Below are positions 3,929 through 48,847 of a stretch of DNA of 64,000 nucleotides, one piece after another. Every line of letters begins with the position of its first letter. The stretch's first letter is position 1. The DNA is taken from the NCBI GenBank assembly GCA_039621445.1, contig CP154954.1, positions 39,021,816 through 39,085,815 of the forward strand. Reading direction: 5' to 3'. Made by a program: the position numbers and the translations under genes. Below the pieces are notes generated by a model. The model ran no database searches. It had not been told where the DNA came from and saw only the letters and a program-made list of their open reading frames with translations. This stretch comes from Euglena gracilis (Eukaryota).

Positions 3929-6780
3929 CATCGTGTGTCGCAGGTGGCCAGGAATCCCAGGGTGCCGGGGCCATAGGGACTGGGGCCCAGAATGGCGGAG
4001 GATAAGGGTGGCCGGGGGCTGTGGCCGGGGTCACTGCAGGGGTCGGGGCCCAGGGTGGCCGGGGGCTGTAACAGGGGTCGGGGCCAGGGTTTTTTTTAAG
4101 ACCGGGGGGGGCGGTCGGTACCCACCCACCCACCCCCTGGGGTGGGGCCCTCCCAGGGGGGGGGGTCCCGGGGGACCCACCCACTTTTACCCGAAAATGC
4201 TAAAAATAGCACCTTTTAAAAAAAATTCGGTCGAAAAAGACATACCCACCAGCCCCTGCCCCCGCCCCCCGGGGGGGGGGGGGGGGAGGGGGTCCAAGGC
4301 CAAAAAAAAAACCACTGGTCGGGTCCCAGGGAGGCCAGGTACGCTGCGGGGATGAGGCGGGGCTGCGGGGTAGCTTCCCCGGTGCCGAGCCGGGAACCCT
4401 CGCTCGGCCAGGGCGAGCCGAGGCCAAGCGAGGTCATCCGGACACGGCCCGGGGTTGCCGGTACGCTGTGGGGGTTGGGGCCATACCATTGCTTAGCGAC
4501 CCCCGGGGGGGGAGGGGGGGTCACTTTCCACTCCGAAAAAACCAGTCAGTCACCCCCCCCCGGGGGGTGGGGTGGGACAGGTGTTAAGCAACGGTCTGGT
4601 CGGGGCCCAGGGTGGCCGGGGCAGGTGAGGGTGGGGTGGGTGGTGGTTGTGGTTGTGGTGTGGGCTGTGGGCTGTGGCCATGGAGTCGGCGGCGGAGAAG
4701 CGGCAGCGTTTGCGTCGGGGATGGTGATGCGGCGGGCTCACTCACAGGCAGGCCCGTGTTCTTCTGCAAACACAGCCAGGGTTTTATGGAACGCGCCAGA
4801 CCTTTTTGAGATTTGGAGTATCCCCAAAATCGCGGTTTCAGATTTGGGCTTTTTGGGCTTCGTCCCACGACGGGTATTTTAGTGCTTTTCTTTTTTGGGG
4901 GATGAAAACATAAAAGACCATAAAAAACATGTTTTTCAATGCAAATGTCAGGGGAAAAACTTTTTGGGTCGCAAACAGAGCGTTTTTTTAAATGACCCCC
5001 CAGGGGATCCAGCTCAGAAGTCGGAAAATTAGGGCTGGCTGACCCCTTCCACCCCCCTAGGGGTCCCTGGAGGGAAAAAGGCTGCTGGCAGGTTGGCCCC
5101 CGGAGGAGGTTAAATTTTCTGAAGGTCTTTCTGGTCCTGGTTGCAAGTCCACCCATGGCAACCCCCCCTGGGGGTTGGACGGGGGTGCAGAACATCTTGA
5201 GCAGGGAAGGATGGGAAGCCTTGAGGGGGGGGGGGGGGTCGGACCCCCCCCCTCCTACCTCGAAACTGAGGGGGGGCGGAAAATTTTTCGATTTCATGGA
5301 CGGACAAAGGGCCGGAAAAAGGGTCGAAATTGGTCAAAAATCCCTGATTTTTCTTTGAAAATCGACCCAAAAATGCTCATTTTTGAAATTTTTTGAACAT
5401 TTTTTGGGGGGAAACACCAACACATCAAAAAATGGGCAATATGTCCAAAAGTGAGCAAAAGGGGTGTTTTTTGCTCATTTTCCGGCGCACAGCGCCGGAA
5501 GAAAATTTTCTGCTATTTTTGGCACCCGTCAAGGAGGGGGGGGTGGGGGGTCCGGACCCCCCTCCCAACATCTAGGGGGGGGGGGGTCCGGGGTGGTCCG
5601 GACCCCCCCCTACCACCTCAATACCGCCTCAATACCGAAGGGCTTCCCATCCTTCCCTGACCTTGAGACAGAAGGGTGGGGATGGTCTGCACCCCTCCCC
5701 CCCTGCACACAAAACCAACTCACTCGGCACCCTGCCAGAGACCCACCAAAAACAACAACAAAAACTGCACAGAGCATTGGCCAATTCTCTACCACTGTGT
5801 GTGTGTGTGTGTCAGCATTTCTGGGAAAAGCAGGGCGTCGCTTAGCGACCTTGGGGGGGGGGGGGGTCGAGTTCATTCGGGCTGGCTGGAAAAAGGCTGC
5901 TGACTGACCTTCCCATGGCGGCCCATCAGCTGGAGCCCAACCTGGGGTCGAACCGGGTAACAAAAAATAATCGAAACACCAAAATGTCCAACAAACTGTC
6001 AATTACCACAATCAAAAATTGCCAGTCAATTGCAAAAATGGAACTTTGACCGCAGATTTGCCATCAGAAGCAAACAAACCCGATTTGGGATTTGCCGAGG
6101 AGGGGAGCAGGGAGGTCCGGACCCTCCCATCCCAACATCCAGCTCCCCACCACCTTCCTTAATGCCGACAGGATGGGATTCAGCCTGAAATCCCAACCCT
6201 GGGGGGGGGGAAGGGGGGCCTCGGAGTGCCGTGGAGTGCCTGGGCAGACAGCCCCCCCCCCCCGGGGTCGGTGCCTGCCTGGCCGTGGACCAAAAAGCGC
6301 CCAACAATGGGTTTTTCTGGGCATCCGGCGCCTGAGGCACTGGAAGGGCCTTGGCCAAGTGCCCAGGCAGTTTTGCCTCAAGGTGCCTGCCCGGGCCGAG
6401 GGTGGGGTCGGCACCGCCTTAGAAAGTCAGCCTGCTTCCCATCTGTCCCTGGGGGTGGGGCCTTCGGTTTCAGCGACGCCCTGGTTCCAACCCCAGCAAC
6501 CCCCTCCCAGGACCGCCGAGTCCTTTGAGCAAAGGGGGAAAAAAACAGTGGCCTGGCTGAAACTGGGGAACCGGGGTGGGGGCACTGAAGGCTGCAGGGC
6601 GAGATGTCCGGTGGGCGACGCTGTGGTCGGCGGCGGAGCTGTGGGCGATGCTGTGGCGCAGGCGTCGGAGGCGTTGGCCAAGGGCGAGATGTCCAGCGGC
6701 GGCGTTGGCCACGGCAGTCGGCGGAGGCAGCGTCGTCCGGCCGCCGGATCAGGGCGCACAGCCACGCTGGGGGCCAGCAC
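3929..6780 (-). CDS. Probable internal exons of a second, Pro-rich low-complexity protein gene (partial)
   Basis: Exons about 67xx-6559, 4739-4602, 4476-4321 and 4079-3929 join in one open frame when two MITEs are removed by the same 3+5 rule (EPAASPSP...ATLGP|NPHSVP...ASLGP|DPCYSP...PATHD). GT donor at 3928. GC-rich sequence leaves the frame and outer limits ambiguous; further exon-like blocks lie near 3030-3101, 2500-2770 and 420-580. Confidence 0.45.
4085..4317. mobile_element. hAT-like MITE, family A (CAGGGTTTTTT...AAAAAACCCTG type)
   Basis: TIR-bounded; flanks gtcggggc/gtcgggtc (7/8 TSD). Confidence 0.85.
4482..4598. mobile_element. hAT-like MITE, family B (CAnACCATTGCTTA)
   Basis: cataccattgctta ... 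taagcaacggtctg; flanks gttggggc/gtcggggc (7/8). Confidence 0.85.
5202..5659. mobile_element. hAT-like MITE
   Basis: Perfect TIR cagggaaggatgggaagcc; flanks atcttgag/accttgag (7/8). Confidence 0.9.
5831..6483. mobile_element. MITE-like element
   Basis: 12-bp TIR cagggcgtcgct; no recognisable TSD. Confidence 0.55.
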
Positions 6781-6833: not shown

Positions 6834-7388
6834 CAGGCTTGTATGGGAATCTCTGGGGGGGACCCCTTCCAAAAACTGGGGGGTGGGGGGACTGCTTGTG
6901 CTTACCGACCGGGAGGGGGGGGGGAGGAGGGTGGGTGCTACAGGGTGCCTGCCCCCAGTGGGCACCCCCCCCTCTGGGTCTTGAGGGGCCCAGAAAATTT
7001 TCATTGAAAATGGCCTCTTCCGGGCCCCTGGCGCTTTCAGCACCAGGGATTATTTTTTCGCCCGAAGTCCCGGCCCGAGGGGGGAGGGGGCATTATTTGG
7101 GGGGGGGGGGGTTTGCACCCCAAAATTTTCAAAATTTTTCGAAGTTCCGTAAGACCCAAATTAGCACCAAATCCCCCTTTGGTTTCGATTTTTTTTTGTA
7201 ATTTGTTGTTAGAGATTGTGATTTTTACCCAATTTTTCAGTCAAAAAAAATCCGGGTCGGCCCGAGATTGGGGGGGGGGCGAAGTCGGACCCCAAGGACT
7301 ATTATTTGGGGGGGGGGTATTATTTGGAGGGGGGAATATTTAGGAGGAGGGTTTACCTCATGTCTGCGGAGCTTCCCATACAACCCTG
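6834..7388. mobile_element. MITE, family C (CAGGsTTGTATGGGAA)
   Basis: caggcttgtatgggaatctc ... cttcccatacaaccctg; same ends as 13892-14413. Confidence 0.8.
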
Positions 7389-10301: not shown

Positions 10302-13300
10302 TCACCGGTGCAGCTTGTGCTTCAGCTTCCGCCACGCCCTTTTCAGGGCGTTGGGCCGTGCGCAGGGCACAGCGCCATGCGCCGTTGCATTTCCCTGGGC
10401 CAGGGGGTAGCTTGAGGATCGGGGGTCTCAGAGGCTGGAAAACTGGCTTGGCTGGGAAAAGGCTGCTGGCTGGGTGGAGCCAGGTTCGATCTCAGGGCAG
10501 CTGGGGGTGGGGGGTCCCGGGAACTTGATCCGGGCCCCCCTTGGCAGGGTGTTCCAGGAGGGGGGACACCCCCCCACCTGAACCCTGTGCACCCTCCTCA
10601 TATCAAACCCTGGGCTGGAACCCCCCCAATGGGATCAAATTTTCTTAAGCTGCGCCCTAACCTGAAAATTGCCAACCCCCCACCAAAGCCAAAGCTGGGC
10701 AGCGAAAAGGAAAAAAAAATCAAACCCGTGAACCGCCCCGAGCCAAAGAGACCAAAGAGAGACCCCCCAAAAAATGCTTAATATCTCCAAAAACATATTC
10801 TCCTATTTTTTTAACCTGAATTTTCTTTGCATGTAAATTTTTATTTGTTTTCAAGTATTCTTTATCACCCACGGGAAGAAACTTCCTGGACAGGAAAGCA
10901 GGGGATTCTAGCAACTCTTTTGAAAAACGCTTGACAGGAAAATGGATTTCGACCCCAGCCCCAGATGGGCTGTGTTATGCATTGAATGCGATTGTTGCTC
11001 CTTCCCCATCCATTTGGAAGGGAGCAGGTGGATTTTTATGACCGGGGAGGGGGGGTCCCCCTCCCCCCCCCCCGGGGGGTCCCCCCCGAGGCGGGGGGGG
11101 GGGGGGCGTCCCAGGGAACTTGCCGAAGAATCGCGAACAGTGCTAACAATGGCACTTTTTCAAAATTTTCGGCGCCAAAGGCACCCAAAAGTACATCCCG
11201 TTCCCCTCCAGGGGACCCCCCCCCCAGGGGGGGCTCAGCCGGACCCACCCACCCTACCCCCCCCAAGGGTCCACGGCTTAAAAAAACCCCTGGAAAGGAG
11301 GATAGAAGACAGAAGTCGTATTTTGTTTTGTGCTATGTGCCCTGGCTGGGGTTGCGCCACCGCTGCTGCTTCAGCGGCCGGCGCGGCCGGCGGCTCCGGC
11401 GCAGCCGGCGGCTCGGCCGGCGGCGCGGCTGGCGCGACAGCCGGCGCGGCTGGCGGCGCAGGCGGTTCCGCACGCCGGGCAGCGACAGGCCGTTGCCAAA
11501 GATGGAGGGGGTGGGGTGGGATTTGGTCTGGGACCAGACTTTCAGTTAGTGTGCTTCAGGAAGTTCTGTGCGGCGCACAAATTTTTTTCTGCGGCGCATG
11601 CAGCGCATGGACAAAGTTTTGCTGCGGTGCTTGCGGCGCAAAATTTTTTTTTGCTGTGGCGCTTGGGGCGTACACAATTTTTTCCTGAAATTTTATTGTG
11701 GTGCACTTTGAACCACAAAGGCGCTCTCACACCCAGGCTTTGGGCAAAGCTGTGCTTCACCATGGTAGCACCAGCCTCACTGTTATCAAAAAAATGTTGC
11801 TGTGGCGCTTGCGGCGCTCGGAATTTTTTTGCTGCGGCGCATGCGGCGCATGGTGGATTTTTTGCTGCGGCGCTTGCGGCGCATGGTCAAAATTTTCCTG
11901 CGGCGCTTGCGGCGCACAGAAAAAAATTTTGTGCGGCGCACTAACTGAAAGTCTGTCTGGGACTTCCACCAGAAGAGGGGGAGCTTGGCACCCTGTCGCT
12001 TCTTCAAGGAAACCCTGTGGAGGGGTGGACTGAACAAACTTTTTTAAAACTGATCCCACGGGCCACATCCACCCAATAACCAGTCAATCAGATTTATTTT
12101 GAAACCAGTCAGCCACTCTGGAATCCACATAGAAATAGACCACAACTGTGAAAAAAACTGTAAAAAATTTTCTGGCAGAGGGGGGCCAAAAACTGGTCCC
12201 TCACTGGGGTGAGGTCGGGATCAGGGTTTTTATCAAGACTGGGGGGGGTCCCCCACCCACCCCAGGGGCCGAAAAATTGCGAAAAATGCTAAGAACAGTG
12301 CATTTCTCAAAAAGTTTCAGCACCTTCAGCTCCGAAAAGTATATTTCACCCCTGGGGGAACCCCCGGGGGGGGCTCCACCCACCCTGCCCCCCCAGGGGG
12401 TCCAAAACAAAAAAAACCCTGGTTGTGGTTGGGAAGGATACTCCAGTGAGTGGTGAGTGATTGTCCGCGTTGGACTTGCAATGCAGAAAGGCAGGAGGAG
12501 GGGCAGTCCGTCAGGAAGGGCCTGCCCGGCAGGCCACAGCCGGCGCCGGATCTCCCGCACCACCGCCTTCGCCTTCGCCACGGGCCCGGGCGGCGGCGGC
12601 GGCGGCGGCTGCGCGTCCCTCCACCGCTGGAGGGGCGTGGTGGGGTTGATGAAGGGGGCGGGCACTTGGCCGCAGGCCGGTCCCCCCGGCACCCACTTGG
12701 GGGGGGGGACAAACCGCCCGCGAGGTTTGGAGAAGTTTGGACCGCCTTCAAATTTTGAGCCGAAAGGCATACATTGGACCTGACAGCAACCCAATCAGGA
12801 AACGGGGGGAGTGCAACGAGGCGATTCAAAAAAAAAACATGTGACGCCTGCAAATTCCGTTTACCTGCATTTCAACCCCAAAGGTTCGCCAGGTCCAGCA
12901 CTTTTGCCGTTCGATGATAAGGGCTTTTGGCGCATTCATCCGTGTTTCCAGGCTGTTCCAGGCATGTGAAATTCTTTTTCCCTGAGGAGGGGAACATTGA
13001 CCAACTGGGAGGGGCCGGAAAAAAAGGGGGGGATGGGCCTGGCCCCAGCAGCAGGGCGTGGACGGCAAGGTCGCCCATGCCGCCCGCCGCGACTGCCCAC
13101 GTGTGGGCAACGCGGAGGGCGGCGTAGGCGGCGTTGTGCCGCCACGCCCTGGCTCAAAGGGGACAGGAGGAGGGAGGGGACCAGGCTGTTTTTTTTACCA
13201 ACCTGGGGGGGGGTCCAGAGTGTCTTGGAAGCCATACCAAAAATGTTGAAAATCCCTTGATTTTTCTTCGAAAATGAATTCCTTGAAAACTGTGAACAAT

Positions 13301-14509
13301 TTAGCTGGGAACGCACCAAACCATCAAAAAAATGGACAATATGCTCAAAACCCAGCATTTTTGTTCATTTTCTGGCGCGCCAAAAAAAATATTTTTGCCA
13401 CAAAGAAGGGGGTCAGGATCCCTCCCCCAACATGCAGGAAGGGGCCCCCCTCACCCACCTTCAAACCAAAATGCTTCCGGTCCATCCCTGGGGAGGGACC
13501 AGGGGAGACGCCAAGCCAAGCCAACCGGTCACAAGAGGGGGGGTGAGCCAAGGTGTGGCCCGCCGTAGCCGTTGCCCTCGACTTGTTCGCGCAGGCGGCG
13601 GTCGATGGCGTGGACGATGGCGGCGGCGGCTGGCGGCGGGGGGCCCTCTGCCTGGGGGGGGGGGGGTGGGGGGGGGGTTGGATTTGGATGAGAGACAACT
13701 TGCAGTTGATCCACCGAACCCGTTGGGGATTGCGACTCTACTTGAAGGGAACCCTCCCCCCCCCCTTGAAACGAACCAACCGCAAAGGGCCCCCCGATTG
13801 CGGTGCACGGGTACAGGCCCGCGACCCACCGCAGCCGCGGCCGCAGGCAGTCCACGTACAGCCAGCTGTACGTGGAGACCACCGCCAGCCGCAGGCTTGT
13901 ATGGGAATCTCGGAGGAGGAGGGGACTGGAGGGGGTGAGGGGAGGGGGATCCCCCCCTACCTCCAGTGTTCGGTCACCGAAAATTTTTGGCCCTGTTTGG
14001 ATCAAAAAATTGATTTTTTTTGAAATTTCTCTGAAATGGTGCAGTGGTGGGGAATGAAAGATGGGGAATAAAGAGGTGTCAGATGCCTTAATTGAAGCCC
14101 TTGAAATGCCAATTTGATTTCCTCTCAACTCCCCACCTGACCCAAATTACAGCCATTTTTCGACCAATCTTACCCATTTTGCCAAAGTTTCATATTGAGC
14201 TTCAAGAGGGTCCAAAAATGCACACCCAACGTGAAGCGCCGGAAAATTTTTATTTGCCGCTGCAGAGGAGGGGGAGGGGGGTGGGGGACCCCTTCGGAAA
14301 CCGGGGGGGGGGGGTGGGAGTGGGGGACCCCCCTGCCACCTCACTCCCCTAGGGGGGGGGGACCCCTACCACCTGTCTCACATCTGTGGCTGTGGAGTTC
14401 CCATACAACCCTGGCCAGCCACGCCAGCGTGTTGGCCAGGCGGCTGTCGGTGGTCGGCAGGATCAACAGCAGGGCCCGTTGGTAGGTCAATGCCAGGGGT
14501 TTTTTTAAG

Positions 14510-14564
<55 letters not shown>

Positions 14565-14819
14565 GGGGGTCCCGGGGGACCCACAAAAAAAATGGCCGAA
14601 AAATCGCGAAAAGTGCTAAAAATAGCATTTTTTCGGCGCCTGCGGCGCCGAAAAGTATATCCCACCCCCACTGGGGGGGACCCTCCCCCCCCGGGGGGGG
14701 GGAGGGGATCCGGCGGACCCACCCACCCTACCCCCCCCTCCCCCCCCGGGGGTCCAAACTTAAAAAAATCCCTGGTCAATGCACCTCATGATGATGATGA
14801 TGATGATGATAGCAATAGC

Positions 14820-14859
<40 letters not shown>

Positions 14860-17800
14860 ACAATGATGATGATGGTGATTAAAAAAAAGAAATTATTCAC
14901 ATCTCAACAAAACATGTTGACTCGATTTGCCGGGGGTTAACAGCACCAATCTAACCCCCAGTCAGGGTTCGATATAAGGACAGGTGGGGGGGGGTGGTCC
15001 GGACCCCCCCCCCCCTGCGGGCCAGGAGGGGGGGGGGGGGGGGGGGGCAACCCCCCCCCCCCAAACCATGTACGCCCTCCTTATATCAAACCCTGCCCCA
15101 ACAAAAAAAACCCAGACTTCCAACGTTTTGTCAAATTCCTTTGAGTGAAACGCAACGCTGGCAGTGACTCAAACCCAATCATCTGGGTTGTGCTCCCAAA
15201 TTCCAACTTTCCTTTTCTCTGACCCCAAATGCCAACGCCAATGGGCTCTGTGTGTCCAGCCCGCAGCAACGATCGGGGCGAGCAGCAGGGGCACCAGCCA
15301 CCAGCCGCGGACCTGTGAGAGGGAAAACGATATGAGATGATGAATTCCCCCTCGCCGACTAGGAAAATGGCAACCAAAAATAATGCAGTGCAAACAAAAT
15401 GTGTGCTTTTCTGCGAGTCAACCCACAAAATGCAAAACATTTGGGGGAGTGACGTCAGAAGATCAGGTTTCTTTTCACCAACCTGGGGGGGGCCCTGTGC
15501 TTTGTGCCTCTCGGAGCCTGCAGGCCAGGCCAATTTTCGGAGGCCAATCCATTCGGCGCCGGGGGGGGGGGCAGGCTGTTTTTTACCAACCCCGGGGGGG
15601 AGGGGGGGTCCGGAGTGCCTGCCCAGGCAGGCACTACCCCCCCCCTGGGGGGGTCGGATTTCGGCCTGTGCCCGGGCACATTCCTTTGAAAATAGGCCAT
15701 TTTTGGCTCCCCGGCGCCTTTGGCGCCGGGGTTGTGCTAGGGCACTTTTGGCCATGTGCCCTACCCCCCCCCCCCGGGGGGTCGGATTTGGAGTGCTTTG
15801 GGGTGCCTGCCTGGGCAGGCACCCCCCCCCCCGGGGTGGGGTCGACACCCGACTAAAATACAGCCTGGGGGGGGTCCCAAAACCCGACCCCCCCCCAGAG
15901 GGGTCGAAAATGCCCTATATTTGGCGCATTGCGGGGATTAGACAGAAACCCATGCGCATCCCTCACCATCGTCATTGCCTTTAGAAAGCTGCACGGCACC
16001 AAATTTGTCTTCTTTTGAATATTATCAGTTTTTGATTCATTCTGGAGAAAATTGTAAGCACACCCCCACCCCGTGTTCGTTGCGCGGGGTGGTCGTCCCT
16101 CCGCAAAGAACAAAAAAAAAACAGCCTCCGCGCGCCTGCGCGCTCTCGAACTGTGAGGGGCAGGGGGCATTCGAGGGTGTAAATCTGAAACACAGCCCAG
16201 GGGTCTCCGGACCCCCATCCCTCGGGCAGGGTACTAAATGAGTGGTCAAAAAAAACCCCAAAAATTGAGTTTTCGCACATGTTTTTTTTGAAAAATCAGT
16301 CAAACAATGCACCACTCATTTTTTTTTACTCTTTTTGGGTTCCCGGGGGTCCCAGACCCCTCTGTCTGAACGGGTCTGGACCCACCCCCCCCCCCCCCCG
16401 GGGGTCTAAACCCTCTTTCCCCGTACTCCCCCCCCCCCCCCCCCCCTCCAACCACCTTCACTCCTCACTCCAACACAAGAGAAAAAATTCTCCATCAGGC
16501 AAATTTTCGATTTTGCAATAATTAATTGACCAAAAAAAGAAAAAAAGACAAAAAATGACAAAGGGTTGACAGAATTTTTGGCCTCGGGGGAAAATCCAGG
16601 ACAAACCGAGCAATTTTTGATTGTCAAAAAGACCTTGACCCTTATCTTTACCCAAACCCTTTTGAAACTCGAAAACAGGGAGGAGGAAACCCACAAAATG
16701 CAAAAAAAACAACAACAACAACAACAACAGACATAAAAACACAAATTTTATCAAAATAGAAAAACACAAAAAAAATGCAAAAAAACAATTGTGTTCCCCC
16801 CTGCCTTCCCCTCCCCTTGCAAAAACTAACGCTCGGTGATTTGTTCTGCCCCCCCCCCCCCCGATCCCCCCTTTGCAAACCTGGACCGGCCCCAAACCCA
16901 GCGACCTCCACACAATCCCCACAGGGTCTTCTGAGTTACCCGCCCCCCCCCCCCTCCATTGTTGTACGACCGGGTTCCTGCAATCTGTGACCGGGGGGGG
17001 GGGGTCGTAACACCCCCATGACCTGCAGCTGGTGTCCGGGGGGTGGTCGTAAATGAGGGGTGGCTGTACGACAGGGGGGGGGGGGCGGGTAATTATGGGC
17101 CTGGCCACCATGCTCGAAATTCCACTTCCCCCACAGGTGGCTTTGAAGAGAACTGTCCAGGCTGAGTCCAGAATTTAAGGGGACGGGGGTGCACAATGCA
17201 AATGAAAAGAGACTTGGAAGCAAAGCACAAGGCAGACCACACCGTGGCGAAGCGGCAGGCCGGGCACAGCGGCACGCTGCGCCCGGCGACCTCCGCCTGC
17301 ACCATGCCCAGCCGGCGGTGGTGGTCCCACGCCCTTCGTTACTTTGTCATTGTGTTGACATGCATGGGAACCTTGACAGGCAGGTGGGGTGGCACTCCCC
17401 CCCCCGCAGAAATACCCCCGCCCCCCCCCCCCAAGTCAGTTAGTTTCCTTCCAACCGAAAATGGCACTTTTGACAGATATTTGTAGTCAGTTTTGCATTT
17501 GTCTGGTTACCACGGCGCACATTTAACAGAAGGGCACACATTTAAGGAAGGGCGTGGGCGGCAGCGGGCACAGAGGCCCGGGTCCGCCACCACATGGCGG
17601 ACCTGGATCTCCTTCGCCGCCCCCAGGGCAGAACGGGAAAGCCTGGTGGGGGGGGGGACGACCCCCCACACAGGAGGCGGGCGTTTGACCCCCCACCCCA
17701 CCACAGCAATTTCCCAGATTTTGTATTAGATACCATGGATGGACCATACATAAATAACATATTTTTCCCCGTCGCCTTTGGCGCCGGAAAAAACTTTGGG

Positions 17801-20800
17801 GTCGAAAACTGGTGTTCCCGGAAACACGGTGGTGTGGTGGGGCGGTCGACCCCCCCCATCCACCACCCTGTCTGTTTGGCCACCCGTTCTGCCCTGGTTG
17901 TCCGCTCAGCGGGGGTCTCAAGGAGCCACCAATACTCGGCGTCAGGCTGCTTTTTGTTTGTTTTGCTTTGTTGTTTCGATAAACACCACAAAAAAAAAAC
18001 ACAGCCTGCTCGAGCAGCTGCCGGATCCCACGCAGTGGGTCGGCAGCGCGGCGCGCGCGGGCCAGCAAGTTTTGGGGCGGGTGGAGCTGATGTTGCCCCC
18101 AGACCCTGCTGGACTGATGGGGGGGGGGGCTTCACCACAATTGCAATGCAGGCTTTTTTCCTACACCTCTGCGGGGTGTGAAACTCTCAGAACGAAAACC
18201 TCTGGCGGGAAGGCATGGACTTGGACCTTCTTGGATATCCAAATGACACCCCCCCCGGTGTGTTATTTGGGCACCCGAGCTGGGTCCCGGGGGGGGTTCT
18301 TTGGGGGGGGGGGTTGTTTTTTACATGGGAAACCAAAGGAAATCAGGGGTGTGTGTCATTGGGGCGCTCGAAATCGGCCCCCGAGGGGGGAGGGGAGTTA
18401 TTTGGGGGGGGGGGAGTTTATTTGGGGGGTTCAAAAGAAACCTGAATTGTGAAATGGAGACAAACAACACAAAAAACCCAGAGAAATCTCCCCTTTCTTT
18501 TGTTGCAAAATTTTTCAAAGTCAAAAACCCTTGTGGAGTTTGACTGCGAAAAACCACAGGGGGGTCGACCCCCTACTGAGCAATGCAAAACTGCCAGGTG
18601 GGGGAGGGGGCTTCAAAGAATCCAATGCAAGGAAAAATATTCGCATCCCTGTCCAACCCCCCACACCGGAGGAGAAGAGGACACACAGAGGAGCGGGCAA
18701 CCATCCCTCCTGGGGTCCACTCTTCCGAAAACCGGGCAGTCACCAAGCACCAGGCAGGTTGGAAATCCAGCCCCCCCCCCCCCGGGGTCAGCTGCTTTGG
18801 AGTCTGGAACGGGAAAAAAAAATGGCAAAAAATTTTTTTGCGGCCGGGTCACCTTTGCGACGACTTGGTCTGGGACAAAAACGAGTCAGTGATCCCCCCG
18901 GTTTGGTGAAGAAACTGTGAAGGCAGGAGTGAGGTGCGGGAAACCCTTTGAAATTTCGACAATTTTTGATCAAAAAAACTTTGGCTGATTTTTGGCCACT
19001 TTTGGGTTCAAATTTTTTTGGCCTTGTGGTTTGCGCCAGGACGCCGTGTCTGTGAAATGCAGGGGGGGGTCATTGGACATAACGGGGTCGTGAGCACAAG
19101 GGGGGGGTAATTGATTGTGTGTACCGGTCGTCTGTTTTGATGCCCGATACTATCCAGGCCACCGGGGCCTGCGTGGCGATCCTGCTCGTGCTCCGCTGCC
19201 TCCTCGTCCGCTTCCCGCAGGAGCACGGCGGGGGCGACGTAGGCGGCGGGTGGCGGGACCTGTCGAGAAAATGAATTGAGATAGTGGAAAAGCCCCAAGA
19301 CATACCCACACGTACACTGAGAAGACATAGCTGACCCTTGAACCACTGCTGGTGTTTAACCAGCAGTCGTTCCGGTGGCAATGAGGTTTTTGGGGCGGGG
19401 AACCCAGCCGACCTGGTCCCGGGGGCTGGTCGCACTTTTTGGCACCCCCAATTTCCTGGCATTGAGGCAATCTGGCCCCAAAAAATCCCGCCCCCCCCAC
19501 CCCCACCAGCCGCCCCGAATTATACTGAAAAAATTGCCAAAATTTCGCTATTGCGGGGTGTTTTACCAGCAGTGGATCCGGTGGCAGTGGGGTTTTTGGG
19601 GGCGGGGAACCCAGCCGACCGACATGGTCCCGGGGGCTGGTCGCACTTTTTGGCACCCTCCAATTTCCTGGCATTGAGGCAATCTGGCCCCAAAATCCCG
19701 CCCCCCCCCCCACCACCACGAGCCGCCCCATATTATACTGAAAAAATTGCCGAAATTTCGCTATTGCGGGGTGTTTTACCAGCAGTGGATCCGGTGGCAA
19801 GAGGGTTCTTGGGGGCGGGGAACCCAGCCGACCTGGTCCCGGGGGCTGGTCGCACTTTTTGGCACCCCCGAATTTCCTGGCATTGAGGCAATCTGGCCCC
19901 CAAAAATCCCGCCCCCCCCCCACCCCACCCCCACCAGCCGCCCCGAATTGTACTGAAAAAATTGCCCAAATTTCGCTGTTGCGGGGTGTTTTACCAGCAG
20001 TGGTTCCGGTGGCAGTGGGGTTTTTGGGGGCGGGGAACCCAGCCGACCTGGTCCCGGGGGCTGGTCGCACTTTTTGGCACCCCCGAATTTCCTGGCATTG
20101 AGGCAATCTGGCCCCAAAAAATCCCGCCCCCCCCCCCACCCCCACCAGCCGCCCCGAATAATACTGAAAAAATTGCCAAAATTTCGCTATTGCGGGGTGT
20201 TTTACCAGCAGTGGATCCGGTGGCAAGAGGGTTTTTGGGGGCGGGGAACCCAGCCGACCTGGTCCCGGGGGCTGGTCGCACTTTTTGGCACCCCCCAATT
20301 TCCTGGCATTGAGGCAATCTGGCCCCCAAAAATCCCGCCCCCCCCCACCCCCACCAGCCGCCCCGAATTGTACTGAAAAAATTGCCGAAATATCGCTATT
20401 GCGGGGTGTTTTACCAGCAGTGGTTCCGGTGGCAGTGGGGTTTTTGGGGGCGGGGAACCCAGCCGACCTGGTCCCGGGGGCTGGTCGCACTTTTTGGCAC
20501 CCCCCAATTTCCTGGCATTGAGGCAATCTGGCCCCCAAAAAATCCCGCCCCCCCCCCACCCCCACCAGCCGCCCCGAATTGTACTGAAAAAATTGCCAAA
20601 ATTTCGCTATTGCGGGGTGTTTTACCAGCAGTGGTTCCGGTGGCAGTGGGGTTTTTGGGGGCGGGGAACCCAGCCGACCTGGTCCCGGGGGCTGGTCGCA
20701 CTTTTTGGCACCCCCGAATTTCCTGGCATTGAGGCAATCTGGCCCCCAAAAATCCCGCCCCCCCCCACCCCACCCCCATGAGCCGCCCCGTACTGAAAAA

Positions 20801-23800
20801 ATTGCCGAAATTTCGCTATTGCGGGGTGTTTTACCAGCAGTGGTTCCGGTGGCAGTGGGGTTTTTGGGGGCGGGGAACCCAGCCGACCTGGTCCCGGGGG
20901 CTGGTCGCACTTTTTCCGACCTGGTCCCGGGGGCTGGTCGCACTTTTTGGCACCCCCGAATTTCCTGGCATTGAGGCAATCTGGCCCCAAAAAATCCCGC
21001 CCCCCCCCCACCCCCACCAGCCGCCCCGAGTTGTACTGAAAAAATTGCCGAAATATCGCTATTGCGGGGTGTTTTACCAGCAGTGGTTCCGGTGGCAGTG
21101 GGGTTTTTGGGGGCGGGGAACCCAGCCGACCTGGTCCCGGGGGCTGGTCGCACTTTTTGGCACCCCCGAATTTCCTGGCATTGAGGCAATCTGGCCCCAA
21201 AAAATCCCGCCCCTCCCCCACCCCCATGAGCCGCCCCGAATAATACTAAAAAAATTGCCAAAATTTCGCTATTGCGGGGTGTTTCACCAGCAGTGGTTCC
21301 GGTGGCAAGAGGGTTTTAGGGGGCGGGGAACCCAGCCGACCTGGTCCCGGGGGCTGGCCGCACTTTTTGGCACCCATTTCCTGGCATTGAGGCAATCTGG
21401 CCACCAAAAAATCCCGCCCCCCCCCACCCCCACCAGCCGCCCCGAATTATACTGAAAAAATTGCCGAAATTTCGCTATTGCGGGGTGTTTTACCAGCAGT
21501 GGATCCGGTGGCAAGAGGGTTTTTGGGGGCGGGGAACCCAGCCGACTGACCTGGTCCCGGGGGCTGGTCGCACTTTTTGGCACCCCCGAATTTCCTGGCA
21601 TTGAGGCAATCTGGCCACCAAAAATCCCGCCCCCCCCCCACCCCCACCAGCCGCCCCGAATTGTACTGAAAAAATTGCCCAAATTTCGCTATTGCGGGGT
21701 GTTTTACCAGCAGTGGTTCCGGTGGCAGTGGGGTTTTTGGGGGGCGGGGAACCCAGCCGACCTGGTCCCGGGGGCTGGTCGCACTTTTTGGCACCCCCGA
21801 ATTTCCTGGCATTGAGGCAATCTGGCCCCCAAAAATCCCGCCCCCCCCCACCCCCACCAGCCGCCCCGAATAATACTGAAAAAATTGCCAAAATTTCGCT
21901 ATTGCGGGGTGTTTTACCAGCAGTGGATCCGGTGGCAGTGGGGTTTTTGGGGGGCGGGGAACCCAGCCGACTGACCTGGTTCCGGGGGCTGGTCGCACTT
22001 TTTGGCACCCCCCAATTTCCTGGCATCGAGGCAATCTGGCCCCAAAAAATCCCGCCCCCCCCCCCACCCCCACCAGCCGCCCTGAATTGTACTGAAAAAA
22101 TTGCCGAAATTTCGCTATTGCGGGGTGTTTTACCGGCAGTGGTTCCGGTGGCAGTGGGGTTTTTGGGGGCGGGGAACCCAGCCGAACTGGTCCCGGGGGC
22201 TGGTCGCACTTTTTGGCACCCCCCAATTTCCTGGCATTGAGGCAATCTGGCCCCAAAAAATCCCGCCCCCCCCCACCCCCACCAGCCGCCCCGAATTATA
22301 CTGAAAAAATTGCCGAAATTTCGCTATTGCGGGGTGTTTTACCAGCAGTGGATCCGGTGGCAAGAGGGTTTTTGGGGGCGGGGAACCCAGCCGACTGACC
22401 TGGTCCCGGGGGCTGGTCGCACTTTTTGGCTCCCCCGAATTTCCTGGCATTGAGGCAATCTTGGCCACCAAAAATCCCGCCCCCCCCACCCCCATGAGCC
22501 GCCCCGAATAATACTGAAAAAATTGCCAAAATTTCGCTATTGCGGGGTGTTTTACCAGCAGTGGTTCCGGTGGCAGTGGGGTTTTTGGGGGCGGGGAACC
22601 CAGCCGACCTGGTCCGGGGGCTGGTCGCACTTTTTGGCACCCCCCAATTTCCTGGCATTGAGGCAATCTGGCCCCAAAAAATCCCGCCCCCCCCCCCCAC
22701 CCCCACCAGCCGCCCTGAATTGTACTGAAAAAATTGCCGAAATTTCGCTATTGCGGGGTGTTTTACCGGCAGTGGTTCCGGTGGCAGTGGGGTTTTTGGG
22801 GGCGGGGAACCCAGCCGACCTGGTCCCGGGGGCTGGTCGCACTTTTTGGCACCCCCCAATTTCCTGGCATTGAGGCAATCTGGCCCCAAAAAATCCCGCC
22901 CCCCCCCACCCCCACCAGCCGCCCCGAATTATACTGAAAAAATTGCCGAAATTTCGCTATTGCGGGGTGTTTTACCAGCAGTGGATCCGGTGGCAAGAGG
23001 GTTTTTGGGGGCGGGGAACCCAGCCGACTGACCTGGTCCCGGGGGCTGGTCGCACTTTTTGGCACCCCCCAATTTCCTGGCATTGAGGCAATCTGGCCCC
23101 AAAAAATCCCGCCCCCCCCCCCACCCCCACCAGCCGCCCCGAATAATACTGAAAAAATTGCCAAAATTTCGCTATTGCGGGGTGTTTTACCAGCAGTGGT
23201 TCCGGTGGCAGTGGGGTTTTTGGGGGCGGGGAACCCAGCCGACCTGGTCCCGGGGGCTGGTCGCACTTTTTGGCACCCCCGAATTTCCTGGCATTGAGGC
23301 AATCTGGCCCCAAAAAATCCCGCCCCCCCCCCCACCCCCGCGAGCCGCCCCGAATAATACTGAAAAAATTGCCAAATTTCGCTATTGCGGGGTGTTTTAC
23401 CAGCAGTGGATCCGGTGGCAAGAGGGTTTTTGGGGGCGGGGAACCCAGCCGACCTGGTTCCGGGGGCTGGTCGCACTTTTTGGCACCCCCCAATTTCCTG
23501 GCATTGAGGCAATCTGGCCCCCAAAAATCCCGCCCCCCCCCCCCACCACCCCCACCAGCCGCCCTGAATTGTACTGAAAAAAATTGCCAAAATTTCGCTA
23601 TTGCGGGGTGTTTTACCAGCAGTGGTTCCGGTGGCAGTGGGGTTTTTGGGGGCGGGGAACCCAGCCGACCTGGTCCCGGGGGCTGGTCGCACTTTTTGGC
23701 ACCCCCGAATTTCCTGGCATTGAGGCAATCTGGACCCCAAAAATCCCGCCCCCCCCCCCACCCCCACCAGCCGCCCCGAATTGTACTGAAAAAATTGCCA

Positions 23801-26800
23801 AAATTTCGCTATTGCGGGGTGTTTTACCAGCAGTGGTTCCGGTGGCAGTGGGGTTTTTGGGGGCGGGGAACCCAGCCGACCTGGTCCCGGGGGCTGGTCG
23901 CACTTTTTGGCCCCCATTTCCTGGCATTGAGGCAATCTGGCCCCCAAAAATCCCGCCCCCCCCCCCCACCCCCACCAGCCGCCCCGAATTGTACTGAAAA
24001 AATTGCCAAAATTTCGCTATTGCGGGGTGTTTTACCAGCAGTGGTTCCGGTGGCAGTGGGGTTTTTGGGGGCGGGGAACCCAGCCGACCTGGTCCCGGGG
24101 GCTGGTCGCACTTTTTGGCACCCCCCAATTTCCTGGCATTGAGGCAATCTGGCCCCAAAAAATCCCGCCCCCCCCCCACCCCCACCAGCCGCCCCGAATA
24201 ATACTGAAAAAATTGCCAAAATTTCGCTATTGCGGGGTGTTTTACCAGCAGTGGATCCGGTGGCAGTGGGGTTTTTGGGGGGCGGGGAACCCAGCCGACT
24301 GACCTGGTTCCGGGGGCTGGTCGCACTTTTTGGCACCCCCCAATTTCCTGGCATCGAGGCAATCTGGCCCCAAAAAATCCCGCCCCCCCCCCACCCCCAC
24401 CAGCCGCCCTGAATTGTACTGAAAAAATTGCCGAAATTTCGCTATTGCGGGGTGTTTTACCGGCAGTGGTTCCGGTGGCAGTGGGGTTTTTGGGGGCGGG
24501 GAACCCAGCCGAACTGGTCCCGGGGGCTGGTCGCACTTTTTGGCACCCCCGAATTTCCTGGCATTGAGGCAATCTGGCCCCCAAAAATCCCGCCCCCCCC
24601 CCCACCCCCACCAGCCGCCCCGAATAATACTGAAAAAATTGCCAAAATTTCGCTATTGCGGGGTGTTTTACCAGCAGTGGATCCGGTGGCAGTGGGGTTT
24701 TTGGGGGGCGGGGAACCCAGCCGACTGACCTGGTTCCGGGGGCTGGTCGCACTTTTTGGCACCCCCCAATTTCCTGGCATCGAGGCAATCTGGCCCCAAA
24801 AAATCCCGCCCCCCCCCCCACCCCCACCAGCCGCCCTGAATTGTACTGAAAAAATTGCCGAAATTTCGCTATTGCGGGGTGTTTTACCGGCAGTGGTTCC
24901 GGTGGCAGTGGGGTTTTTGGGGGCGGGGAACCCAGCCGAACTGGTCCCGGGGGCTGGTCGCACTTTTTGGCACCCCCCAGTTTCCTGGCATTGAGGCAAT
25001 CTGGCCCCAAAAAATCCCGCCCCCCCCCACCCCCACCAGCCGCCCCGAATTATATTGAAAAAATTGCCGAAATTTCGCTATTGCGGGGTGTTTTACCGGC
25101 AGTGGATCCGGTGGCAAGAGGGTTTTTGGGGGCGGGGAACCCAGCCGACTGACCTGGTCCCGGGGGCTGGTCGCACTTTTTGGCTCCCCCGAATTTCCTG
25201 GCATTGAGGCAATCTTGGCCCCAAAAATCCCGCCCCCCCCACCCCCATGAGCCGCCCCGAATAATACTGAAAAAATTGCCAAAATTTCGCTATTGCGGGG
25301 TGTTTTACCAGCAGTGGTTCCGGTGGCAGTGGGGTTTTTGGGGGCGGGGAACCCAGCCGACCTGGTCCCGGGGGCTGGTCGCACTTTTTGGCACCCCCGA
25401 ATTTCCTGGCATTGAGGCAATCTGGCCCCAAAAAATCCCGCCCCCCCCCCACCCCCGCGAGCCGCCCTGAATAATACTGAAAAAATTGCCAAATTTCGCT
25501 ATTGCGCGGTGTTTTACCAGCAGTGGATCCGGTGGCAGTGGGGTTTTTGGGGGCGGGGAACCCAGCCGACCTGGTTCCGGGGGCTGGTCGCACCCCCCAA
25601 TTTCCTGGCATTGAGGCAATCTGGCCCCAAAAAATCCCGCCCCCCCCCCCCACCCCACCCCCACCAGCCGCCCTGAATTGTACTGAAAAAAATTGCCAAA
25701 ATTTCGCTATTGCGGGGTGTTTTACCAGCAGTGGTTCCGGTGGCAGTGGGGTTTTTGGGGGCGGGGAACCCAGCCGACCTGGTCCCGGGGGCTGGTCGCA
25801 CTTTTTGGCACCCCCGAATTTCCTGGCATTGAGGCAATCTGGCCCCAAAAAATCCCGCCCCCCCCCCCCCCACCCCCGCGAGCCGCCCCGAATTTTACTG
25901 AAAAAATTGCCAAAATTTCGCTATTGCGGGGTGTTTTACCAGCAGTGGATCCGGTGGCAAGAGGGTTTTTGGGGGCGGGGAACCCAGCCGACTGACCTGG
26001 TTCCGGGGGCTGGTCGCACTTTTTGGCACCCCCGAATTTCCTGGCATTGAGGCAATAAAATCCCGCCCCCCCCCCCCCACCCCCATGAGCCGCCCCGAAT
26101 TATACTGAAAAAATTGCCAAAATTTCGCTATTGCGGGGTGTTTTACCAGCAGTGGATCCGGTGGCAAGAGGGTTTTTGGGGGCGGGGAACCCAGCCGACC
26201 TGGTCCCGGGGGCTGGTCGCACTTTTTGGCACCCCCCAATTTCCTGGCATTGAGGCAATCTGGCCCCAAAAAATCCCGCCCCCCCCCACCCCCACCAGCC
26301 GCCCCGAATTATACTGAAAAAATTGCCAAAATTTCGCTATTGCGGGGTGTTTTACCAGCAGTGGATCCGGTGCAAGAGGGCGGGGAACCCAGCCGACCTG
26401 GTCCCGGGGGCTGGTCGCACTTTTTGGCACCCCCGAATTTCCTGGCATTGAGGCAATCTGGCCCCAAAAAATCCCGCCCCCCCCCCCACCCCCACCAGCC
26501 GCCCCGAATAATACTGAAAAAATTGCCAAAATTTCGCTATTGCGGGGTGTTTTACCAGCAGTGGTTCCGGTGGCAGTGGGGTTTTTGGGGGCGGGGAACC
26601 CAGCCGACCTGGTCCCGGGGGCTGGTCGCACTTTTTGGCACCCCCGAATTTCCTGGCATTGAGGCAATCTGGCCCCAAAAAATCCCGCCCCCCCCCACCC
26701 CCGCGAGCCTCCCCGAATAATACTGAAAAAACTGCCTAATTCCCCAAAAAATCGTACCTCGTTTCATACCAAACAAAAATTGCCAAATTTTTTTCACTGT

Positions 26801-27602: not shown

Positions 27603-27809
27603 CACACCATTGCTTAGCGACCCCCTGGGGGGGGTCACGTTCCATTCTGAAAAAACCAGTCAGTCACTGTACCCCTGAATAGGAGAAATCAAAAAAAATC
27701 CGGCGCCTTTGGCGCCAGGCCAGCCACTTTTCGTCACCCCCCCCCCCCAGCGGCGTCAGTCACCCCCCCCTTCGGAGGTGGGGTAGTCCAGGTGTTAAGC
27801 AATGGTATG
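27603..27809. mobile_element. MITE, family B
   Basis: cacaccattgctta ... taagcaatggtatg; perfect TSD gccagcag. Confidence 0.92.
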
Positions 27810-27846
27810 GCCAGCAGTTTGGGCTGGCAGGCCGGCAGGGCCAGGG

Positions 27847-28286
27847 CAGGGTTCGATATAAGGACAGGTGGGGGGGGGGGTGGTCCGGACCCCCCCCTGC
27901 GGGCCAGGAGGGGGGGGGGGGGGGTGGGGGGGCGCCCCCGCCCACCTAAACAGGTGCGCGGTCAGGGTGGCCGAATTTTCGGCCCGGCGCGAAGCGCCGG
28001 GCCGAAAATTTTTGACCCCCCAAAACGACCAAAAGTGCCATTTTGGGCACTTTTGGGGCAAAAATGTGCCAAAAATGCAAAAAATTTTCGGCGCGAAGCG
28101 CCGGAGGAAAAAATTGACCCTTTTTGGGGGGGGTCAATTTTTGCCCCCGAGGGTCGGTCCGGACCCCCCTTGCAGGTGGGGGGGGGGGTGGTCCGGACCC
28201 CCCCCCGCGGGCCAGGAGGGGGGGGGGGGGTGGGGGGGGACCCCCCCCCACCTAAACCATGTACGCCCTCCTTATATCGAACCCTG
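27847..28286. mobile_element. MITE, family D
   Basis: Perfect 18-bp TIR cagggttcgatataagga; perfect TSD ggccaggg. Confidence 0.95.
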
Positions 28287-28294
28287 GGCCAGGG

Positions 28295-31200
28295 TGACCC
28301 TGTGCGCCGGCGTGGGGAGGGAGCGTCGAAGGGGGAGGGCAGCGGGGCCGGCGACCACCACGTGATGCGGTGGCAGGGCCGTATGGGAATCTCGGACGAG
28401 GGAGTGGGGGGAGCACCTTTCCAAAACTGGGGGGGGGGACCCTGCCAAGTTTTCGGTCGCCGAAATCTTTGTCCGTTTTTCAGGTTAAAAAAAATCAGTT
28501 GCTCTGGGAATTTCTCTCAGAAATGGCAGGGAATCAGAGGAAATGTCAGGAAATGTCAATCCAACAGTATTTTGATTTCCCCGCAACTCCCTGCCTGTCC
28601 CGAGCTACGGCCATTTTTCGGCCATTTGCCAAAAATTCATGCTGACCCTCAAGAGGGCCCCAAAATGCACACCCGGCGTGAAGCGCCGGAAGATTTTTGT
28701 TTGCCCCCCCCTTCCGCCACCTTGCCCCCCTTGGTGGGGGGGGGGGGGTGTGCTACCACCAACCTCTGTATGCGGAACTTCCCATGCAACCCTGTGCGCC
28801 GGCGTGGGGAGGGAGCGTCGAAGGGGGAGGGCGAGGCGAAGGGGGAGGGCGAGGCGAAGGGGGCCGGCGATCACCAGGTGATTCGGCGGCACGGTCGTAT
28901 GGGAATCTCGGAGGAGGGAGGGGGGGAGCGCCCTTCCAAAACTGGGGGGGGTCAGGGTTCGATATAAGGACAGGTGGGGGGGTCGGAGCGGGCCAGGAGG
29001 GGGGGGGGGTGGGGGGGGGACAACCCCCCCCCCACCTAAACAGGTGCGCGTCAGGGTGGGAATCGGCCCGGCGCGAAGCGCCGGGATTTTTGACCCCCAA
29101 AACGACCAAAAGTGCCATTTTGGGCACTTTTGGGCATGTGCCAAAAATGCAAAAAAATCGGCGCGAAGCGCCGGAGGAAAAAATTGACCCTTTTGGGGGG
29201 GGTCAATTTTTGCTCCCCGGGGTCGGTCCGGACCCCCTTGCAGGTGGGGGGGGGTGGTCCGGACCCCCCCTGCGGGCCAGGGGGGGGGGGGGGGGGGGGG
29301 GACACCCCCCCACCTAAACCATGTACGCCCTCCTTATATCGAACCCTGGGGGGGGGGGGGGGGTGGGAGGACCCAGTTTTTTTTCGCCGAAAATTTTGGC
29401 CATTGTCCAGGATAAATAAAAAATCAGTTTTTTTTGGTGTCTCTCAAAAATGGCAGGGAATCAGAGGCAATGTCAGGAGAACTAAATTGAAGAACTGAAA
29501 GTTCACAATCTAACAGGATTTTAATTTCCTGCCAACTCCTCACCTGTCCCGAGCTACGGCCATTTGTGGCCATTTGCCAAAAATTTCATGCTGACCCTCA
29601 AGAGGCTCCCAAAATGCACACACGGCGTGAAGCGCAGGAAGATTTTTTTTGCCCCACACCCCTTTCCGCCACCTTGTCTCCAGGGGGGGGGGTGTCCGGA
29701 CCCCCCCTGCCGGCATGGGGAGGAGCGTCGAGGGGGAGGGGGTCGAAGGGGGGGTGGCGGGGCCGGCGATCACCAGGTGATGCGGCGGCAGGGCCGTATG
29801 GGAATCTCGACGAGGAGTGGGGGGGAGCCCCTTTCCAAAACTGGGGGGGGGGGACCCTGCCCAGTTTTCGGTCGCCGAAAATTTTGGCCGTTTTTCAGGT
29901 TAAAAAAATCAGTTTTTTTTGGTGTCTCTCAAAAATGGCAGGGAATCAGAGGAAATGTCAGGAAATGTCAATCCAACAGTATTTTGATTTCCCCGCAACT
30001 CCCCACCTGTCCCGAGCTACGGCCATTTGTGGCCATTTGCCAAAAATTTCATGCTGACCCTCAAGAGGGTCCCAAAATGCACACCCGGCGTGAAGCGCCG
30101 GAAGATTTTTTTTGCCCCCCCCCCCTTTCCGCCACCTTGCCTCCAGGGGGGGGTCCTCTGTCTGCGGAACTTCCCATGCAACCCTGTGTGCCGGCATGGG
30201 GAGGGAGCGTCGAAGGGGGAGGGAGCGTCGAAGGGGGAGGGTGGCGGGGCCGGCGATCACCAGGTGATGCGGCGGCAGGGCCGTATGGGAATCTCGGACG
30301 AGGGAGTGGGGGGGACAACCTTTCCAAAACCGGGGGGGGGGGGGGGCCGACCCAGTTTTTGTTCGCCGAAAATTTTGGCCGTTTTTCGGGTTAAAGAAAA
30401 ATCAATTTCTCTGGGAAATTCTGAGAAATGGCAGGGAATCAGAGGAAATGTCAGGAAAATCCATTGGAGTGCCCATCCTTGAATTCCATTGACCCTGCGG
30501 CGGGGGGGGGGGGGGGGGGGGTGCTACCACCAACCTCTGTAGGAACTTCCCCGTGCGCCGGCGGGGGGGGGGCGAGGTTTGGTTCGGGCCCAGGGAATTT
30601 CGCGGAGGTCCCTCAAAAATGTCCAAAATCCAAAAAAAAATTAAAAAAAAATCAAAAAATCAGAGAACCAAATTCCCCAAAAATCCCAACTTCCATGCAA
30701 CCCTGTGTGGGGGGGGAGGGAGCGTCGTGGGGGGGGGGCGTGAAGGGGTAGGGGAATCTAATGGGAGGAGTGGGGGGGACAACCTTTCCAAAACCGGGGG
30801 GGGGGGGACCCTGCCCAGTTTTCGGTCGCCGAAATCTTTGTCCGTTTTTCAGGTTAAAAAAAATCAGTTGCTCTGGGAATTTCTCTCAGAAATGGCAGGG
30901 AATCAGAGGAAATGTCAGGAAATGTCAATCCAACAGTATTTTGATTTCCCCGCAACTCCCTGCCTGTCCCGAGCTACGGCCATTTTTCGGCCATTTGCCA
31001 AAAATTCATGCTGACCCTCAAGAGGGTCCCAAAATGCACACCCGGCGTGAAGCGCCGGAAGATTTTTGTTTGCCCCCCCCCCCCCTTCCGCCACCTTGCC
31101 CCCCTTGGTGGGGGGGGGGGTGTGCTACCACCAACCTCTGTATGCGGAACTTCCCATGCAACCCTGTGCGCCGGCGTGGGGAGGGAGCGTCGAAGGGGGA

Positions 31201-39179: not shown

Positions 39180-39254
39180 TCGCCCCCCGGCGGGATTCGA
39201 ACCCGCGACCTACCGCTCACACGCTAACCACACGACCGCTATGCTACAGGGGTC
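39180..39254 (-). pseudogene. tRNA-like sequence (tRNA pseudogene or SINE head)
   Basis: GACCCCTG-TAGCATAGCGG...AGGTC-GCGGG-TTCGAAT-CCCGC-CGGGGGGC: good T-arm, A/B boxes and a plausible acceptor stem, but the anticodon stem does not pair. Confidence 0.6.
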
Positions 39255-40899: not shown

Positions 40900-41245
40900 G
40901 GCGGGCAAATCCCTTTTTTTTGCCCAGCTATTCGAGGGCCCCAAAATAACAAAATCCCTTGTGTTACCCACCCGTTTCGGGGGGGCAAATCCCTTGTGTA
41001 ATCCAACAATTGGGGCGTAAATCCCTTTTGTTGCCGAACTGTTCGATGGCCCCAAAATAACAAAATCCCTTGTGTATTCCAACTCATTTGGGGCGTAAAT
41101 CCCTTTGGTTGCCGAACTGTTTGAGGGCCCCAAAATAAAAAAAATCCCTTGTGTTACCCACCCGTTTTGGGGGGGCAAATCCCTTTTGTTGCCCAACTGT
41201 TCGAGGGCCCCAAAACAACAAAATCCCTTGTGTTACCCACCCGTT
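40900..41245. repeat. Short array of the 78-bp satellite
   Basis: Same unit as 48848-64000. Confidence 0.9.
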
Positions 41246-48747: not shown

Positions 48748-48847
48748 CTGCGGGGGAGGGGGGGGGGCAGTTTGACACTCATTCTGGTTTCTTTTTTCTA
48801 CTTCAATCAGATGGTTCAAACGTTTTATTGAACTGAACAGTCTCCTG

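Follow-up and report, generated by a model that had tools for sequence, protein, structure and literature searches.

A miniature transposon and its relatives

The 64-kb stretch of Euglena gracilis DNA analysed here (the window) carries a miniature inverted-repeat transposon of 522 bp at 13892-14413, inside a predicted minus-strand gene. Its terminal inverted repeats, CAGGCTTGTATGGGAA on the left (13892-13907) and TTCCCATACAACCCTG on the right (14398-14413), were found by an inverted-repeat pair search and an end-motif scan; the arms are 16 nt long and complementary at 15 of 16 positions (94%). The element is flanked by gccagccg (13884-13891) and gccagcca (14414-14421), an 8-base target-site duplication with seven of eight bases matching, read in the sequence and recovered by a scan for CAG...CTG pairs. 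A sequence-only reading of this DNA had proposed an intact miniature transposon with 16-bp inverted repeats between these same two flanks, and its anatomy is confirmed by the arms, the duplication and the presence of relatives homologous to the element. A recent insertion is plausible from the match of both arms (15/16) and duplication (7/8).

With up to three mismatches allowed, the end motif CAGGSTTGTATGGGAA has 24 matches in the window, whereas chance predicts 1.96, and no shuffle out of 100 gave as many as the window. Fourteen of the 24 matches fall within a tandem array at 28295-32730 (plus strand), identified by alignment, blastn and the motif scan, whose repeating unit combines a full copy of the 13892-14413 family with some 95 bp of spacer. 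The array units (28374-32708) align with 13892-14413 over almost its full length, with indels, and blastn gives 73-78% identity in the interior over 146-181 nt. Unit length is approximately 463-492 bp, and some units have lost one end. The array is satellite-like. A further element at 6834-7388 (plus strand; alignment and pair scan) has identical 16-nt ends, an interior unrelated to that of 13892-14413 and a duplication that matches at four of eight positions and is not clear. The two elements have about 30 nt in common at each end (approximately 90% identity), and since the common sequence is confined to the termini, 6834-7388 is best read as a different element, from a sister family that shares these ends. 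The sequence-only reading had placed both loci in one family; this holds for the array, and for 6834-7388 it extends to the ends and no further. Related copies are therefore found at several unrelated sites, as array units and as the ends of 6834-7388, and the proposed link between the intron and a dispersed mobile family stands; the family has copies that lie outside genes and also makes up a satellite.

The region is crowded with small DNA transposons that have 8-bp duplications and CAG...CTG ends, the combination characteristic of hAT transposons. Among 41 CAG...CTG inverted-repeat pairs in the window, eight have an 8-bp flanking repeat matching at 7/8 positions or better (5202-5659, 11535-11955, 13892-14413, 14494-14774, 15572-15867, 27847-28286, 28953-29348 and 40026-40530), and four of these repeats are perfect. 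The element at 13892-14413 thus resembles hAT miniature transposons in duplication length and end sequence, and we call it hAT-like on these two features, because no hAT transposase was found by Pfam among the open reading frames of the 64-kb window. Nor did the open reading frames of at least 100 aa that overlap the element match any Pfam family.

A third transposon family, with ends CAGGGTTCGATATA, is represented by 27847-28286, 28953-29348 and a 133-bp short form at 14963-15095; one copy has a perfect duplication, GGCCAGGG, and one is nested in the second unit of the array. Nesting is also seen at 39926-40881, where a 956-bp element with identical 14-nt ends encloses a 505-bp element (40026-40530) with a perfect duplication, GTCCATAA.

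Coding character of the flanks and the minus-strand gene model

Both flanks of 13892-14413 are strongly periodic in G+C content. Each scores 0.44 for GC phase, where the 99th and 99.9th percentiles for 72-nt windows of non-satellite DNA are 0.354 and 0.458; when non-overlapping windows of that DNA are ranked by periodicity, both flanks are in the top 25. Except for G-runs, their sequence occurs nowhere else in the window, and their GC phases agree once 530 nt, the element plus one copy of the duplication, are removed. Three-base periodicity by itself is blind to strand. Of the two periodic frames, the minus-strand one runs open and is protein-like in composition, while an internal stop breaks the plus-strand one, in which R, S, G and P are enriched (0.44 versus 0.28).

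Searches for related proteins gave no match. The 122-aa minus-strand open reading frame at 13532-13897, which covers exons b and c of the model below, had no homologue among 1.84 billion representatives and no match to longer proteins. A 438-aa open reading frame across repeats (27651-28964) had no protein matches, and an Atlas look-up of a repeat open reading frame returned no usable match. No Pfam family scored above cut-off among 148 open reading frames of at least 100 aa outside satellites, and six exon pieces likewise gave no family; two sub-threshold repeat matches both fell in one satellite open reading frame. By composition and consistency with a gene model, the minus-strand flanks look coding. 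The proposal that the transposon sits in coding sequence is upheld in this sense, for a gene without a homologue or a Pfam family.

The gene model draws on a published splicing code. In the accessible parts of the literature, euglenid nonconventional introns are described as lacking GT-AG borders, as pairing a CAG at +4 to +6 with a CTG at -8 to -6, and as commonly having direct repeats at their junctions (Milanowski 2014). Knock-ins have given the code 5'-N3CDG-/-CH'GN5-6|R, in which the donor spacer is strictly 3 nt, a purine opens the next exon and a stem adjoining the motifs is essential (Nomura 2025, as far as accessible). The same source reports for E. agilis that 71.8% of 649,158 introns are nonconventional and that short direct repeats occur at 84.4% of all introns. 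For E. gracilis, the available text of PMC11170887 gives a nonconventional consensus of CCAGG at +3 to +7 and CCTG at -9 to -6, conventional introns with a GTGTG donor consensus and a C-rich tract followed by CAG, and a mean Euglena intron length of approximately 510-540 bp. At both junctions a pyrimidine precedes a purine, with C at exon +3, according to the part of PMC4770533 that was available.

Applying the nonconventional rule together with ordinary GT...CAG introns along the minus strand yielded an eight-exon model from 15312 to 11333, with 259 codons and GC contents of 0.72, 0.59 and 0.93 at codon positions 1, 2 and 3. It starts with exon z (15254-15312), which follows the acceptor ...CCCTCTCACAG and encodes a hydrophobic peptide (GC3 0.89). 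A predicted nonconventional intron, ACA-CAG...CTG-CTGTT|G (15253-14465, 8/10 Watson-Crick stem pairs), leads to exon a2 (14464-14417), directly upstream of the transposon, with a GC3 of 1.00 over 16 codons. Downstream of the transposon, exon b (13886-13800) also has a GC3 of 1.00, over 29 codons. It is followed by a predicted nonconventional intron of 168 nt, AAT-CGG...CCG-CCGCC|A (13799-13632; 10/10 pairs including G-U), and by exon c (13631-13533), whose frame is ambiguous by composition (GC1 and GC3 both 0.82). A predicted conventional intron, GTGACC...C-rich tract...CAG (13532-13149, from splice-site reading), separates exon c from exon d (13148-13045, GC3 0.91). Next come a nonconventional intron predicted by code fit, GGC-CAG...CTG-CGGCC|A (13044-12668), exon e (12667-12538, GC3 0.98), and a second predicted conventional intron, GTGGCC...CCCCTCCACAG (12537-12015), with a C-rich tract and a CAG end. 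Exon f1 (12014-11959, GC3 0.84) is separated from exon f2 (11529-11333, GC3 0.95; coding to 11336, stop codon TAG at 11335-11333) by what would be a second transposon-made nonconventional intron, AGA-CAG...CTG-GTCCC|A (11958-11530), with 10/10 Watson-Crick pairs. The element within it (11535-11955, 421 bp, ends CAGACTTTCAGTTAGTG...) has a perfect 8-bp duplication, TCTGGGAC, and interrupts a coding-like segment of the minus strand.

Counting the intron that contains 13892-14413 (14416-13887), five introns fit the code (with 15253-14465, 13799-13632, 13044-12668 and 11958-11530) and two are conventional GT...CAG introns, both with C-rich tracts, a mix that appears Euglena-like. In seven of the eight exons the exon's own best GC phase coincides with the third codon position of the model; exon c is tied. 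All seven introns are near-aperiodic, with scores of 0.01-0.09 except for 13799-13632 at 0.20. The absence of stops was not a discriminating test, as 972 of 2187 boundary-shifted models were also open, and the two conventional donors were picked with the frame already known. A loose scan for the code gave 1573 and 1250 matches in the real strands versus 2136 and 1398 in the reversed sequence; enrichment was confined to stricter stems in the gene region, with 16 on the minus strand versus 7 in the reversed and 1.5 in the shuffled sequence.

Several parts of the model have alternatives. In the first version, a neighbouring transposon of another family (14494-14774) interrupted exon a, which had an in-frame TGA just upstream; because this stop adjoined the exon, that version was dropped for the larger code-fitting intron 15253-14465 (exon a2 may extend to 14488 in the alternative model). 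A conventional alternative for the same intron (donor GG|GTCAGA, acceptor ...GACAG|) is in frame and agrees less closely with the GC3 pattern. For intron 13799-13632, too, a conventional solution exists that is in frame and ends at a CAG after a C-run at 13651. A tentative start of the final model, read by eye, is an ATG at 15440-15438 followed by a donor GT at 15422, which would supply a hydrophobic N-terminus.

Intron 15253-14465 holds the neighbouring transposon, a microsatellite and the small transposon 14963-15095. The neighbouring transposon is 281 bp long, has ends CAGGGGTTTTTTTAAG / CTTAAAAAAATCCCTG, a G-run of about 60 nt and a perfect 8-bp duplication, gtcaatgc (14486-14493 / 14775-14782), and lies 72 bp from the element at 13892-14413. 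The microsatellite (14790-14880) is a compound trinucleotide repeat on the plus strand, (GAT)n then (AAC)n, with trivial periodicity beside the gene.

Boundaries of the predicted intron and competing explanations

Removing 13887-14416 joins ...LANTLAW to LAVVSTYSW... in a single frame, as the sequence-only reading had stated. Such a seamless fusion proves nothing alone, because any insertion taken out with one copy of its duplication restores the old frame. The borders are more informative. On the minus strand the predicted intron (14416-13887, 530 nt) begins with GG and ends with CT, which is not a GT/GC-AG pair, and none of the nine positions to which the borders can slide within the duplication offers GT/GC...AG. 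Since no exact GT/GC-AG solution exists, the seamless fusion is not a spliceosomal prediction; with non-GT-AG boundaries, the splicing prediction is valid only under the euglenid nonconventional system. The earlier reading did not contain this point, and the boundaries that it gave are exactly those of the published Euglena nonconventional code.

The minus strand reads GGC CAG GGTTGTATGG...CCATACAAGC CTG CGGCT|G. GGC-CAG agrees with the donor-side rule, N3-CDG with a strict 3-nt spacer, and CTG-CGGCT|G with the acceptor-side rule, CH'G-N5-6 and then a purine. Read on the plus strand, the downstream exon would have C as its first base, and the purine rule fails. The E. gracilis consensus (CCAGG at +3 to +7, CCTG at -9 to -6) is present in GGCCAGG... 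and ...GCCTGCGGCT; both junctions are T|G, pyrimidine before purine, and C stands at exon +3. The stem adjoining CAG and CTG has 9/10 Watson-Crick pairs, and in the minimum-energy RNA fold as well as the centroid fold the intron is closed by a stem of the two inverted repeats. Were the element kept in the RNA, a stop would be reached about 25 codons inside it (open reading frame 14341-14727).

With its transposon anatomy, coding-like flanks and fit to the published cis code, the hAT-like miniature transposon at 13892-14413 probably forms a nonconventional intron. Transcription of the gene and actual excision of intron 14416-13887 are inferred. In the mechanism that we propose, a non-autonomous hAT-type DNA transposon would have entered a protein-coding gene of the minus strand, within an exon. 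Its inverted repeats would pair in the pre-mRNA and draw the intron ends together, and the euglenid nonconventional machinery would cut 3 nt before CAG and 5 nt after CTG, removing the element and one copy of the duplication (530 nt, 14416 to 13887). The pre-insertion frame would be restored exactly (...LANTLAW|LAVVSTYSW...), because the 3- and 5-nt spacers together equal the 8-bp duplication.

The chief competing explanation is that the transposon landed in a dead or never-expressed gene remnant of a repeat-rich region, as a plain insertion that is never removed from RNA. The window consists mostly of satellites and transposons and is gene-poor, the gene lacks homologue and Pfam support as well as an established start codon, and restoration of the frame would follow from the duplication alone. 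A remnant is hard to square with 259 codons at a GC3 of 0.93 that have no premature stop and are parted by aperiodic introns. Moreover, three code-fitting introns without a leftover duplication separate in-phase exons, which suggests that the exons were maintained for a long time since those insertions. The other transposons bear on this as well. Among 12 transposon-like elements checked, three (11535, 13892 and 14494) have periodic, in-phase flanks, and in all three the duplication positions 5|6 are pyrimidine|purine on the minus strand, although the counts are small and the comparison is post hoc; for 14494 the right flank is the microsatellite, so that its periodicity is trivial, and the element is intronic in the final model. 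Taken together, we regard a dead gene as unlikely.

It is very improbable that the element is instead a spliceosomal introner of the kind found in Micromonas, Aureococcus and dinoflagellates, using GT or GC as donor and AG as acceptor close to the ends of the element. Twelve in-frame GT/GC-AG pairs do lie within about 40 nt of the element ends. One example combines the donor GTGGCT, 9 nt before the element, with the acceptor ...CCCATACAAG, 4 nt before the element end and preceded by a pyrimidine-rich stretch, and its product would be 3 nt longer, with W replaced by LR. This donor is weak compared with the usual consensus, and none of the 12 pairs gives exact excision. Introners with 8-nt duplications are known in Polarella (Roy 2020 preprint, accessible part), and there the known 8-nt class starts the intron with the G(A/C/T) of the duplication and ends the element in AG; at this locus T or C is the first base of the duplication on the minus strand, and the element finishes in TG whichever strand is read. 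Because the splice-site arrangement that defines the Aureococcus/Polarella 8-nt class, and with it the dinoflagellate model, fails at this locus, where the element ends TG and not AG, we rejected membership of that class. The neighbouring transposon at 14494-14774 has no in-frame GT/GC-AG pair at all.

Least probable is that the flanks are non-coding, with periodicity and open frames accidental in G+C-rich repeats, or that the plus strand codes: open frames are common in the window, no homologue was found and the plus strand shares the periodicity by symmetry up to a TAG at 14481-14483, but the strongly periodic flanks are not repeats, eight segments fall in phase only after rule-based intron removal, and plus-strand coding was ruled out by its internal stop and the failed purine rule at 13892-14413, besides its R/S/G/P-rich composition.

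A possible transposon origin for euglenid nonconventional introns

As a probable nonconventional intron, 14416-13887 resembles those of E. gracilis and E. agilis in its non-GT-AG borders, the CAG at +4 to +6 and the CTG at -8 to -6, the 3-nt and 5-nt spacers, the purine-first exon, the stem at the motifs, the direct repeats at the junctions, a length of about 500 nt and the presence of GT-AG introns in the same gene, all of them predicted here from the DNA sequence. It differs from published euglenid introns in that 13892-14413 is a demonstrated member of a dispersed transposon family with a near-intact 8-bp duplication, and in that copies outside genes and a satellite derive from that family; in the literature covered, a transposon origin is a hypothesis. 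Literature to 2025, in its accessible parts, calls the origin of nonconventional introns unclear, with miniature transposons only suspected, and a review of euglenid introns, accessible in part, states that they are released as circles. The available text of PMC4770533 describes a nonconventional intron that one strain of E. agilis acquired recently; it has 8-nt direct repeats and was interpreted there as a possible result of break repair.

The locus also resembles introners as they are described in the accessible literature on Micromonas pusilla, Aureococcus anophagefferens, Polarella glacialis (classes 6, 8 and 10) and Symbiodinium. These too are miniature transposons; they have terminal inverted repeats and duplicate their target sites, in some cases over 8 nt. 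Insertion makes the intron, and excision takes out the element with one duplication copy, which is known in introners and predicted here. According to the same sources, introners are spliceosomal, with a G(T/C/A) donor from the duplication and AG at the element end, whereas 13892-14413 ends in TG.

Both the mechanism and this kind of intron are already known, the latter still poorly explained, and the locus provides a clean case. What it adds is an intron candidate that demonstrably belongs to a dispersed transposon family and keeps a near-intact duplication (7/8). We lean slightly towards a broader reading, in which the locus would directly show euglenid nonconventional introns to be hAT-like miniature transposons, the 3- and 5-nt spacers would mirror the 8-bp duplication at the RNA level, and the family would still be making introns. 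The published paired junction preferences would then be the two copies of duplication positions 5, 6 and 8: a pyrimidine would end both exon and intron, a purine would start both intron and next exon, and C would stand at intron +3 and exon +3. Two insertions with intact duplications in one gene would belong to this same activity, which would have seeded the satellite array as well.

The 3 + 5 spacing suggests that an insertion would be erased exactly from the message in any frame, provided that a purine occupies position 6 of the duplication on the sense strand. We found no earlier statement of this argument in the main-text passages of openly available euglenid-intron papers that were covered. 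The locus is useful support for the transposon-origin hypothesis, and its combination of inverted repeats, target-site duplication, extragenic copies and code fit could turn a suspicion into something testable.

Other repeats account for much of the rest of the window. A satellite at 19351-26736 has 34.9 copies of a 211-bp unit with 90% matches; it is open in several frames and therefore produces spurious long open reading frames of up to 721 aa. A second satellite, with a 78-80-bp unit, higher-order periods of 112 and 190 and more than 150 copies, occupies 45637-46830 and 48847-64000, continues beyond the end of the window and recurs in shorter runs at 41010-41245 and 42875-43305. A tandem repeat at 47235-47777 has 4.9 copies of a 109-bp unit. 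The single match in the window to Rfam and ARAGORN is a tRNA-like sequence on the minus strand at 39181-39254, with 31.9 bits in Rfam (cut-off 29) and an ARAGORN call of tRNA-??? with a four-base anticodon; it may be a pseudogene or a tRNA-derived repeat.
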